From: Pristiophorus japonicus
Taxonomy: Eukaryota
Direction of reading: 5' to 3'
DNA: 64,000 nucleotides
NCBI RefSeq assembly: GCF_044704955.1
Contig: NC_092003.1
Coordinates: 5,952,001 to 6,016,000, forward strand
In this document: piece after piece, positions 14,496 through 36,430 of the stretch
How the letters are laid out: each line of letters starts with the position of its first letter
How positions within the stretch are numbered: the stretch's first letter is position 1
Made by a program: the position numbers and the translations under genes
The notes under the pieces: model-generated
The model's database searches: none
The model's input: only the letters and a program-made list of their open reading frames with translations
Told to the model about the DNA's origin: nothing

Positions 14496-14699
14496 ATGGT
14501 GTCCAGCGCTTTCTGATAAGCAAAACAGTATTTCCTGAACTGATCCTTTAAAAAAACATGTCAAATATAATCAGTGTCATTTTTTTTCGATCTGATTATT
14601 TATGGGTGGCTCATGTGCTCCAGTCCATTCCTGCATTGTGTCACAGATGAAGAAACTCGGGTAGAAATTCCCATTCGAGGTGACATTCCCATCTGGCCA

Positions 14700-15186
14700 T
14701 TGGAGGGAGCTGCGTGCAGTGGCATGCCTCTGTAGGGAGCAGCGCGTGCTGCTGCAGGAGGGCGACGGCTGTGAAGTCAGGTCACTGATTGCAGTGCGGG
14801 TAGGCACAGCAGGAGGGGCGAAGGAGCGGCGAGAGATTGTAGAGGGAAGTGACCGGGGCTCAGGAGAGGCGAGGGCCCAGGAGCAGCACGGGCCAGCCCA
14901 CACTGCGATATGTGCGCGCATTAGGTCCGTGCAGCAGAGCTGGTCTCCAGTTGTCTTGGTTAATCCTTGCCACTGGACCAAGACCGAGCTCTGTCGAGCC
15001 CGGGTGGTGGCTGGTGTGCAACGGCCACCACACGTTAAAAAAAATCCACGCACAGGCATCTTCCACCCTTCAGGATGTAGTTCGGGACCTGGAATATTAG
15101 GTCCTTCATTGAAACACCTGTGAACTCATCCCTTTTTGGCGTGGAAGCAAGTCATCCTCGATCCGAGGGACTGTCTATGATGATGA
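14700..15186 (+). mobile_element. Non-coding retroposon (SINE-like) with RTE-type 3' tail
   Basis: Ends GTGGAAGCAAGTCATCCTCG..GAGGGACTG..ATGATGATG like the RTE copies; related copies at 55385-55965 (+) and 56921-57230 (-). Confidence 0.7.
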
Positions 15187-15335
15187 GGACTCCCAAATGG
15201 CAAGTTCCCAGTCTTGGCTGGATCATCGGGTGAAAATACCAACCCTCGGCATGGTGCTTTGCTACTGGGAAAAGAGAAATACTCGGGGATGATCCCGTTC
15301 ACAATTTTGGTTAAATGTTGATTATTTTCTTCCTA

Positions 15336-15890
15336 ATTCATTCTCGGGGTGAGGGTATCACTGGCAAGGCTGGCATTTATTGCCCGTCCCTAGATTCCCT
15401 TGAGAAGGTGGTGGTGGGCCTTCTTCTTGAACTGCTGCAGCCTGTGTGGTGAAGATCGGGAGTTACAGGATTTTGATCCAACAACAATGAGGGAACGGCG
15501 ATATATATATATATATATTTTTTAAAAAATTAAAATTTCGTAGCCAATCTTTCCAATTCTTTGTCAGATCACAAACGCCAGAGGTCACCTTGCACACATC
15601 AAGGATCACCCTGCACTAATGCTCTTAGCCAAAAGGCCTAGAGCCCAAGCACCGTTCCTGGAAGTACTGCAATACCAGGTTCGTGCCATGGAGGTGGATG
15701 GGTCAGGCCCCCCACACACCTCCGTGGAGGTGGATGGGTCAAGCCACCCCACCCACCTCCTCCTATGCGATATATGTCCCAAGTCAGGATGGTGTGTGTG
15801 ATTTGGAGGGTAACGTGGGGCTACTGATGTTCCCATGCATCTGCTACCCTTATCTTTCTAGGTGACGGAGGTCACGGGTTTGAGAGGTTC
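15336..15890 (-). mobile_element. Non-LTR LINE 3' UTR fragment (clade uncertain), host of the U2-derived insert
   Basis: Same family as 35570-35930, 44345-44985 and 62672-63800. Confidence 0.7.
15507..15766 (-). mobile_element. Retroposed insert containing permuted U2 snRNA segments
   Basis: 9-bp TSD GCGATATAT; the minus strand has ACCTGGTATTGCAGTACTTCCAGGAACGGTGC (U2 stem-loop IV) followed by GGCCTTTTGGCTAAGA (U2 nt 11-26). Confidence 0.8.
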
Positions 15891-16055
15891 CTGACGAGCA
15901 GAACAGCAGGCTCGGAGCCTCTCAGTGCAAGAGTGCTGAACTGGCATCAAATAAAGCCAGTCGTGAGCGATAGCATGAAGACGTTAAGCTAACATCAAAT
16001 GGAGGCATTCATTAACCAAGTATGCTTCAACGACTGCATGAATTCAAACAAATGC

Positions 16056-16790
16056 ATCAGCTGTGACTCAGCGGGTAGAACGCTCGCCTCTGAGTCAAAA
16101 GGTTGTGGGTTCAAGTCCCACTCCAGGGACTTGAGCACAAAAAAAATCTAAGCTGACACTCCAGTGCAGTACTGAGGGAGCGGCGCACTGTCGAAGGGGC
16201 GGTACTGAGGGAGCGGCGCACTGTTGGAGGGGCGGTACTGAGGGAGCGGCGCACTGTCGGAGGGGCGGTACTGAGGGAGCACCGCACTGTCGGAGGGGCG
16301 GTACTGAGGGAGCGCCGCACTGTCAGAGGGACAGTACTAGGGGAGGGCCACGGTGTCAGAGGGGCAGTACTGAGGGAGCGCTGCACTGTCGGAGGGGCGG
16401 TACTGAGGGAGCGGCGCACTGTCGGAGGGGCAGTACTGAGGGAGCGGCGCACTGTCGGGGATGCCGTCTTTCGGATGAGACATTAAACCAAGGCTCGGGC
16501 TGCTCTCTCAGGTGGACGTAACAGATCCCGTGGCACTATTTCGAAGAAGAGCAGGCGAGTTATCCCTGGTGCCTGGCCAATATTTATCCCTCAACCGACA
16601 TAACAAAAACAGTTTAATTGATCATTATCACATTGCTGTTTGTGGGAGCTTGCTGTGCGCAAATTGGCTGCCGTGTTTCCCACATTACCTCAGTGACTAC
16701 ACTCCAAAAGTACTTCATTGGCTGTAAAGAGCTTTGAGACGTCCAGTGGTCGTGAAAGGCGCTATATAAATGCAAGACTTTCTTCCTTTC
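16056..16790 (+). mobile_element. Full-length DeuSINE with 33-bp minisatellite (16165-16459)
   Basis: tRNA-like head (A box TGACTCAGCGGG, B box GGTTCAAGTCC), Deu core, L2-like tail. Confidence 0.9.
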
Positions 16791-35503: not shown

Positions 35504-36430
35504 TCGGCCCCCCGCCCCGCCGACCGAGTCCAAAAATCTATCGCTCTCAGCCTTGAATATTTTTTTTATTCGTTCTGGATTGGAGGTGTCGCTGGCAAGA
35601 CGAGCATTTACTGCCCATGAGAAGGTGGTGGTGAGTCGCCTTCTTGAACCAGTGCAGTCCTTATGGTGAGGGTGCTCCCACAGTGCTGTTAGGGAGGGAG
35701 TTCCAGGATTTTGACGATGAAGGAATGGCGATATATTTCCAAGTCAGGTTGGTGTGTAACTTAGAGGGGAGTTTGCTGATGCATGGTGTTCCCATGCGCA
35801 AGCTGCCCTTGTTCGTCTAAGTTTGGGAGGTGCTGCTGAAGAAGCCTTGGCAAGTTGCTCCAGTGCATCTTGTAGATGGTGCACACTGCAGCCACGGTGC
35901 GCCGGTGGTGGAGGGAGGGAGTGAGTGTTGCAATGATTTTTGTTAAAAAAATGTTTTAAACTGAAGACAGACTAGCTGCAGGTAGAGGTGATGAGGCATG
36001 CAGCGATATCAGGAGCCAGTATTTTTATTTATAGAATAGTTGTCATGGTTTTTACTGCAAGGACTGATTTTTATTGGTGAACTAAGGTTTCCTGCTCTCA
36101 GCATGTTGCTTGGTGATAGTGCAATTTCGAAGGACATTATTTATCATTTGCTGCATAATATTTAGTGGTGTTTAGATGAAAAACAAAACTATTTTTAGGA
36201 GCGTTATCAGACAAAATTTGACACCGGGCCACTTAAAAAGATATTAGGTGACAAAAGCTTGGTCAAAGAGGTAGGTTTTAAGGAGCGTCTTGAAGGAGAA
36301 GTCGGGAGAGGTTTTGGGAGGGAATTCCAGAGCTTCAGGCCCAGGCGGCTGGAGGCACGACCACCAATCGTGGAGCGATTAAAATCAGGGATGCACCAGA
36401 GGTGAAGAACAAAAGGTCCATGAACATTGC

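Follow-up and report, generated by a model that had tools for sequence, protein, structure and literature searches.

A young SINEU-like retroposon family built from U2 and U1 snRNA pieces shares insertion sites with a Keno-like LINE

Introduction

SINE heads normally supply an internal RNA polymerase III (Pol III) promoter, and the promoters of snRNA genes lie outside the transcript. For this reason the transcription of snRNA-headed SINEs was left as an open question when the SINEU families were described, with flanking promoters suggested, as for R2 (PMC4494074). The same account defines SINEU, reports none detected outside crocodilians and infers Tx1-Mar as the partner; Tx1-Mar clusters with Keno, and some of its elements carry U1 or U2 heads (PMC4494074). 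Template jumps that run end-to-end onto snRNAs are also on record (PMC3414825, PMC4494074). Our literature search, which covered mostly open-access papers, found SINEU described from crocodilians only, no snRNA-headed SINE in cartilaginous fishes and none inserted in U2 genes.

Here, we analyse a 260-bp insert in a 64-kb window (i.e., the whole stretch of 64,000 nucleotides under study). The insert is a dead, inert, 5'-truncated copy of a young non-autonomous retroposon, and the family to which it belongs is young, multi-copy, SINEU-like and built from U2 and U1 pieces. Our best reading, judged probable from sequence comparisons, is that this SINEU-like element is moved by a Keno-like LINE and that its source copies borrow the U2 promoter.

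Results

The insert is delimited by two 9-bp target-site duplications with 260 bp between them (Table 1), in agreement with the first-pass annotation of this DNA, and the older repeat that it splits is intact across the site in two sister copies. The TA run blurs the boundary on the tail side. Other parts of the insert were likewise recovered as described there, namely the two 36-bp units, the tail of unrelated sequence with its A/(TA)n tract, and U2 stem-loop IV (15649-15680), which is identical at 30 of 32 positions to the U2 of its own genome with a score that none of 500 shuffles reached. A second U2 5' piece is also present; it had been said to fade near U2 nt 36 and instead ends at nt 29 (nt 31 in subfamily C). 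In the full-length sister copy L008 this piece matches U2 nt 7-29 at 21 of 23 positions (0/500 shuffles). Interrupted A-tracts in other copies have a subfamily-typical form.

Table 1. Coordinates of the retroposon insert, its parts and the interrupted repeat, in window positions
Feature	Position	Length	Strand	Remarks
Retroposon insert	15507-15766	260 bp	minus	bounded by two 9-bp duplications
Target-site duplication, tail side	15498-15506	9 bp		continues into TA repeat; site single in sister repeats at 35728 and 62845
Target-site duplication, 5' side	15767-15775	9 bp		site single in sister repeats
A/T-rich 3' tract, TA expansion beside duplication	15507-15536		minus
Unique tail	15537-15620	~85 nt	minus	homologous in subfamilies A, B, C and D
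Second U2 5' piece (U2 nt 7-29), predicted stem-loop I	15621-15644		minus
U2 stem-loop IV and outer stem (U2 ~nt 146-184)	15649-15687		minus
Two 36-nt units, each a remodelled U2 stem-loop III	15689-15760		minus	91% matches
5' truncation point, ~nt 116 of the 345-nt element	15761-15766		minus	just past Sm-site remnant
Older interrupted host repeat, left part	15336-15497			67-75% to four other window places
Older interrupted host repeat, right part	15776-15872			71% to 35728-35831

The U2 identity of the element was recovered by Rfam from a full-length A copy (U2 59.2 bits against a cut-off of 46; U1 21 bits, E 0.0023) and not from the window copy alone (U2 19.6 bits, E 0.42); no match in the window reached the gathering level. 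This low score would suit a solitary chimeric U2 pseudogene or a fortuitous similarity, a reading that is ruled out by the full-length copy above the cut-off and by the presence of the U2-3'/U2-5' junction in at least 5,051 copies genome-wide. As had been noted, the U2 3' end precedes the 5' end in the window copy. The architecture of a 'circularly permuted U2' drawn from it is not supported: full-length elements start at U2 nt 1, carry U1 pieces and have two U2 5' ends. Compared with them, the window copy lacks the U2 head and the U1 pieces, and its permuted look is due to 5' truncation.

Below-cut-off Rfam matches to Prion_pknot, potC, Gl_U4, PVT1_4 and mir-1003 were judged to be chance, and ARAGORN detected no tRNA genes in the 64 kb. 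A separate GC-rich insert of about 500 bp with a short trinucleotide run at its end (14690-15190) lies upstream of the interrupted repeat, and at positions 16055-16560 a 33-bp minisatellite (16169-16458, 8.8 copies) comes after a tRNA-like SINE head.

The genome searched comprises 5.9 Gb. A DNA search gave 1,062 candidates, 40 of which were scored, at 96-100%. Exact patterns, whose counts are lower bounds and whose reversed controls gave 0, revealed at least 5,051 copies of the junction, at least 2,141 A heads, at least 374 B heads, at least 291 copies of subfamily C and at least 277 of the window's own variant, so that the insert is one of many copies of a U2-derived SINE, truncated at its 5' end, as the first-pass annotation had proposed. 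Full-length A and B copies measure 345 nt and subfamily C about 265 nt. The 5' part of the element consists of U2 nt 1-28/29 and a U1-like segment (nt 3-57), followed in A by U1 28-47; then come a remnant of the U2 Sm region, the two stem-loop III units, stem-loop IV, U2 nt 7-29, the tail of about 85 nt and the A-tract. None of 500 shuffles equalled the score of any of the head pieces (U2 nt 1-29, U1 nt 3-57 and U1 28-47), and the same result (0/500) was obtained for the homology between the A and C tails. The heads of A, B, C and D differ and the 3' half is common to all, a pattern of repeated 5' addition or replacement by U1 and U2 pieces. Inspection by eye shows that the Sm-site A is lost in subfamily A and kept in C and D.

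A set of 141 extracted elements comprised 74 A, 42 B, 10 D and 4 C copies, together with 11 unassigned ones (10 truncated copies in tandem and one B variant). When 30 copies were picked on the junction, 21 reached U2 nt 1-15 and 9 were truncated; 8 of these 9 end at nt 112-124, as the window copy does. Target-site duplications were found by a strict script in 47 of 104 copies.

In subfamily C, a near-whole U2 (140 bits) extends to about nt 188 and is followed by U2 nt 2-31 and then by a tail homologous with the A tail. Twenty C copies were fetched, 15 of which start within nt 1-14 and 16 of which are 98-100% identical to the consensus. Among the origins previously offered for the head-to-tail U2 junction, a template jump is the best explanation. 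We think it likely that the junction arose once, by run-off from a short 'U2 head plus tail' RNA onto the 3' end of U2, and that the head was remodelled later. Reverse transcription would have run off the 5' end of this short RNA and carried on along the 3' end of a U2 snRNA, generating the U2-3'/U2-5' junction, and later switches to U1 and U2 would have reshaped the head. The short ancestor was not found. At the C junction almost nothing separates the mature U2 3' end from U2 nt 2, much as in a circle, which could point to a founder copied from circular or ligated U2 RNA. Circular U2 is not needed, however, because subfamily C is a near-whole U2 placed end-to-end with a U2 5' end and the tail. 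Since the element runs through U2 more than once and also has a non-U2 tail, a jump is needed anyway, and a circle saves no step. Furthermore, the U2 5' end is capped, which hinders ligation. With the precedent of end-to-end snRNA jumps (PMC3414825, PMC4494074), we regard a circular or ligated founder as extremely unlikely.

Stem-loop IV is the least variable part among the 74 A copies (0.2-0.4% versus 4-13% in head and tail), a figure that is partly biased because many copies were picked on nearby bases. Its retention to recruit snRNP proteins, as suggested earlier for the insert, is possible. The young subfamily C has a changed stem-loop IV loop, and A, B and D differ from the host U2 at two stem-loop IV bases; no host U2 with the loop IV variant of the SINE was found (0 exact matches in the genome). 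Covariation in the core was seen in none of 42 pairs among 8 copies, two of which overlap only partly; across these 8 copies variation falls in loops and linker, and variation between subfamilies in two loops of the 36-nt units. The two units are predicted to fold either as two hairpins or as one long hairpin (z -5.05). Both host U2 types (L031:1501-1691 and L081) differ from the SINE in stem-loop IV, the SINE being nearer to the Rfam consensus, and the SINE may preserve an older U2 state at this stem-loop.

The partner LINE is about 5.7 kb long. ORF1 contains ZCCHC3-type RNA-binding domains and CCHC, ORF2 contains an N-terminal APE endonuclease domain, reverse transcriptase (RT) and zf-RVT, and the ORFs are open in several copies. 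One 48% match of the RT is named TX1 and none is labelled Keno; the term 'Keno-like' therefore rests on the endonuclease and the site (PMC4640811). Utopia was rejected as the partner, as an APE domain was found in place of a restriction-like endonuclease. The 5' UTRs are 99-100% identical among the best 40 of 403 candidates. As for the insertion site, 54 exact junctions between an A-tail and U2 nt 38/39 were found in the genome, of which 32 belong to the LINE, 20 to subfamily B, and one each to A and C. The head of the LINE itself is U2 1-44 with two changes, and both LINE and SINE re-insert there. The LINE is also dispersed (167 exact 3' ends).

Sites are shared away from U2 as well. Four of 23 non-tandem LINE 3' ends match one of 82 SINE ends, compared with a mean of 0.03 and a maximum of 1 in 300 control draws, and inspection by eye adds a fifth such site (L222 versus L092 and L171). 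A single site in another repeat takes 8 of the 82 SINE ends, and all 29 exact A-tails at that site belong to the SINE family. Another SINE or a U2 head is abutted by 26 of 108 SINE ends and 7 of 30 LINE ends. The base before the post-tail sequence is A in 40 of 42 targets, and 11 of these targets are the tails of a previous copy. Duplication cores span 8-18 nt in 42 SINE copies and 14-17 nt in four LINE copies. Behind two LINE tails (L088 and L264) comes part of U2 (38-171 or 38-131) and then a second A-run, an arrangement that fits read-through into the host U2 gene. Together, the U1/U2 heads and the shared Tx1 targets bear out the kinship in kind with SINEU and the link with Keno that had been suggested.

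The SINE tail has no match to U1, U2 or the Keno-like 3' UTR in shuffle tests, and the LINE sharing this tail that the first-pass annotation had envisaged was not recovered: for the three SINE tails compared with the Keno-like 3' UTR, 110-298 of 500 shuffles score equally well. On the same result the SINE does not look like a SIDE-type deletion derivative that keeps the LINE 3' end. Tails and the LINE 5' UTR gave a weak match over the same stretch each time (2, 64 and 81 of 500 shuffles), to be read against a total of 12 tail comparisons. We are confident that the Keno-like ORF2 mobilises the SINE through its A-tract, without a shared 3' tail. The ORF2 protein would nick the target and reverse-transcribe the SINE RNA from the A-tract, which would make such a tail unnecessary. 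If another L1/Tx1 family were the main mover of the SINE, insertion at the U2 site would be incidental or a minor route. This would be in keeping with the low number of U2-site junctions (54, compared with thousands of dispersed copies), with the lack of a common 3' tail, and with a partner survey that covered the Keno-like LINE alone. Such a mover is, however, very unlikely given that the U2 site and the off-target sites are shared to the exact nucleotide, that the duplication lengths of SINE and LINE are similar, and that the Keno-like LINE is itself dispersed and young.

Several further places with LINE copies were observed. Many near-identical full-length LINEs with open ORFs, some in tandem, are present at C19:69.62-69.73 Mb (L077-L080), C1003 and C4309 (L086); they fill the chromosome-placed part of the U2 array, and the family looks currently active. 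An abundant repeat, with LTR-retrotransposon RNase H-like coding by eye, contains a single-nucleotide insertion hot spot (L179-L207, L227 and L235), at which SINE and LINE copies accumulate as tandem trains (L255-L256). Two LINE 5' ends (C2321:270867-276987) lie beside a U1 gene at C2321:267819.

The best Rfam U2 matches are located in tandem arrays, and one array unit has the SINE placed after U2 nt 28 and ahead of nt 38/39; only one U2 head is present there, and a duplication is absent. Among the 20 in-gene B copies, 17 lie behind type-1 U2 upstream DNA and one behind type-2, one runs off the contig end and one is truncated. Eighteen in-gene copies are full-length B1 placed directly behind normal U2 upstream DNA, and the 80 nt upstream of in-gene B copies match those of uninterrupted U2 genes. 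For type-1 U2, the SINE is held by 17 of 287 assembled units. The 18 in-gene copies are non-independent, as a single insertion can be counted repeatedly where arrays homogenise or unplaced contigs are redundant; two U2 types are occupied and at least two independent events are therefore represented. When 14 dispersed B1 copies were compared with the in-gene copy, 12 were 99.1-99.7% and two 97.3% identical. None of the 34 dispersed copies that start at nt 1-3 carries U2 upstream DNA.

The corresponding searches were negative for subfamily A. None of five pattern matches had an A head behind type-1 or type-2 U2 upstream DNA, though A is the commonest head and the window's variant is young, and no A source copy was found with a looser junction pattern (57 matches, five extra C9 places being unclassified) or at the LINE's own head (nine matches: six LINE tails, one LINE with U2 read-through and two SINE-containing). 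Only 5'-truncated A-type copies lie behind U2-like upstream DNA (L087 and L269), and the one full-length A copy at the U2 site (L047) is without U2 upstream DNA. Full-length C and D copies behind such DNA are likewise absent from the 54 junctions, and U2 read-through was not seen in any dispersed SINE. A source for subfamily A could hide in unassembled array units or through array turnover.

By eye, the octamer is present in four of four U1 upstream regions and absent within 320 nt upstream of either U2 type, and type-1 U2 has no clear PSE; the U2 upstream DNA is therefore a promoter by position only. The type-1 U2 array unit measures 770 bp, part of which is a long trinucleotide microsatellite, and a block of its spacer is duplicated (L031:1250-1340, all type-1 units). 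The second U2 type resides in amplified units of 18-40 kb at C9:111.0-111.3 and 113.4-113.8 Mb (L050-L063 and L081), each with an intact U2, a fixed LINE 3' fragment and a U2 38-191 remainder.

The SINE head is snRNA-derived, and T4-T5 runs are seen by eye inside the element; these runs may argue against Pol III, an argument also made for SINEU (PMC4494074). For subfamily B1, we consider that the element probably has no promoter of its own and passes through a cycle of transcription from U2 genes and internal priming; for the window's subfamily A, we lean slightly towards the same cycle. A copy landing in a U2 gene would join it through its own U2 head, start exactly at U2 +1 behind the upstream DNA of the gene, and be transcribed as if it were U2. 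The transcript would continue into the rest of U2, with priming at the internal, genome-encoded A-tract; subfamily-typical interruptions at the start of the A-tract suggest such templated internal priming. Most new copies would land elsewhere and stay silent, and the few that land in U2 genes would renew the source pool.

The same family and LINE could also be combined with in-gene copies that are sinks, transcription coming from elsewhere, i.e., from an internal Pol II promoter, from the tail of an upstream copy in tandem, or from host or transposon promoters; template switching would then add U2 heads anew. To this one may count the missing in-gene source for subfamily A, the roughly one quarter of SINE ends (26/108) that adjoin another copy, and, by eye, CCAAT-type words in the tail and the LINE 5' UTR, the latter also with an octamer. 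Flanking promoters were favoured, and repeated 5' additions to SINEU-2 documented, in PMC4494074. Still, the head has one constant U2/U1 junction per subfamily, which is unlike independent additions. Among the 34 near-complete 5' ends none has U2 upstream DNA, and no shared 5' extension is visible by eye; moreover, nearly identical dispersed copies exist for precisely the variant that resides in U2 genes. We therefore judge it unlikely that the in-gene copies are sinks, and prefer transcription from the U2 genes.

Public sequencing runs were matched with the in-gene B1 copy and its flanks. Of 24 matched runs, five hold at least half of the query words, come from one organism and include none recorded as RNA; six RNA-labelled runs hold 0.05-0.07 of the words.

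Discussion

The young family, its intact partner LINE and candidate sources at known addresses in the U2 arrays make the promoter question raised by SINEU directly testable. If the host is a cartilaginous fish, the SINEU class extends to a second vertebrate lineage. The U2 arrays bear the load of two linked parasites.

A more tentative proposal, which we hold somewhat less probable than not, is that of an active SINE with hijacked U2 genes as sources, whose snRNA-type Pol II transcripts might be able to enter snRNP biogenesis. The putative in-gene transcript would comprise U2 +1, the SINE, the internal A-tract and U2 38-188 with Sm site, stem-loop IV and 3' signals. For the SINE, intact U2 and the Keno-like partner would be competitors over a few hundred gene units, and re-insertion into these units would ensure its survival. 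If true, this would be a distinct SINE life cycle, possibly general for snRNA-headed elements.

Compared with described systems, the present SINE resembles SINEU-1, -2 and -3 in its U1- and U2-derived heads, repeated 5' additions, partial duplications, length under 500 bp, A-tail, internal oligo-T and tandem insertion (PMC4494074). As in SINEU, no LINE was found to share its tail, and a Tx1 partner is inferred from shared targets (PMC4494074). SINEU is described from crocodilians only and targets Mariner-N4_AMi (PMC4494074), whereas the present SINE enters U2 genes at nt 38/39, is found there in full length behind U2 upstream DNA, coexists with an intact partner LINE and carries a U2-3'/U2-5' junction in its body. 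An origin independent of the crocodilian SINEU families is probable, because the targets here are U2 genes and other repeats.

The partner LINE is followed by U2 from nt 38/39 like Keno and Utopia, and shares the APE endonuclease with Keno (PMC4640811, PMC4494074), whereas Utopia has a restriction-like endonuclease (PMC4640811). Keno is listed from frogs, fish, lancelet and hydra in PMC4640811, in which the word 'shark' does not occur and whose passages on Keno mention no non-autonomous partner. Unlike Keno as described there, the LINE has a U2 1-44 head and relaxed specificity (PMC4640811). CmiSINEs and SacSINE1 of cartilaginous fish, the presumed host group, are short non-autonomous retroposons like the present SINE; they have tRNA heads, CORE or Deu domains and L2 tails, and the account of them uses neither 'SINEU' nor 'snRNA' (PMC5499810).

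Drosophila R2 and the R2 and R1 SIDEs offer a parallel for the use of a host gene, the SIDEs being likewise non-autonomous elements at their partner's site in a multicopy RNA gene (PMC3414825). R2 SIDEs depend on co-transcription and show in vivo template jumps to snRNA, to which the present SINE can be likened (PMC3414825). SIDEs are LINE deletions with the LINE 3' end and a ribozyme, confined to rDNA (PMC3414825). The present SINE, unlike SIDEs, consists of snRNA pieces without the LINE 3' end, has spread genome-wide and would need no ribozyme if its start is U2 +1. By analogy, the present SINE would work as SINEU does, with a Keno-like LINE as partner, and would rely on the host gene as the R2 SIDEs do.
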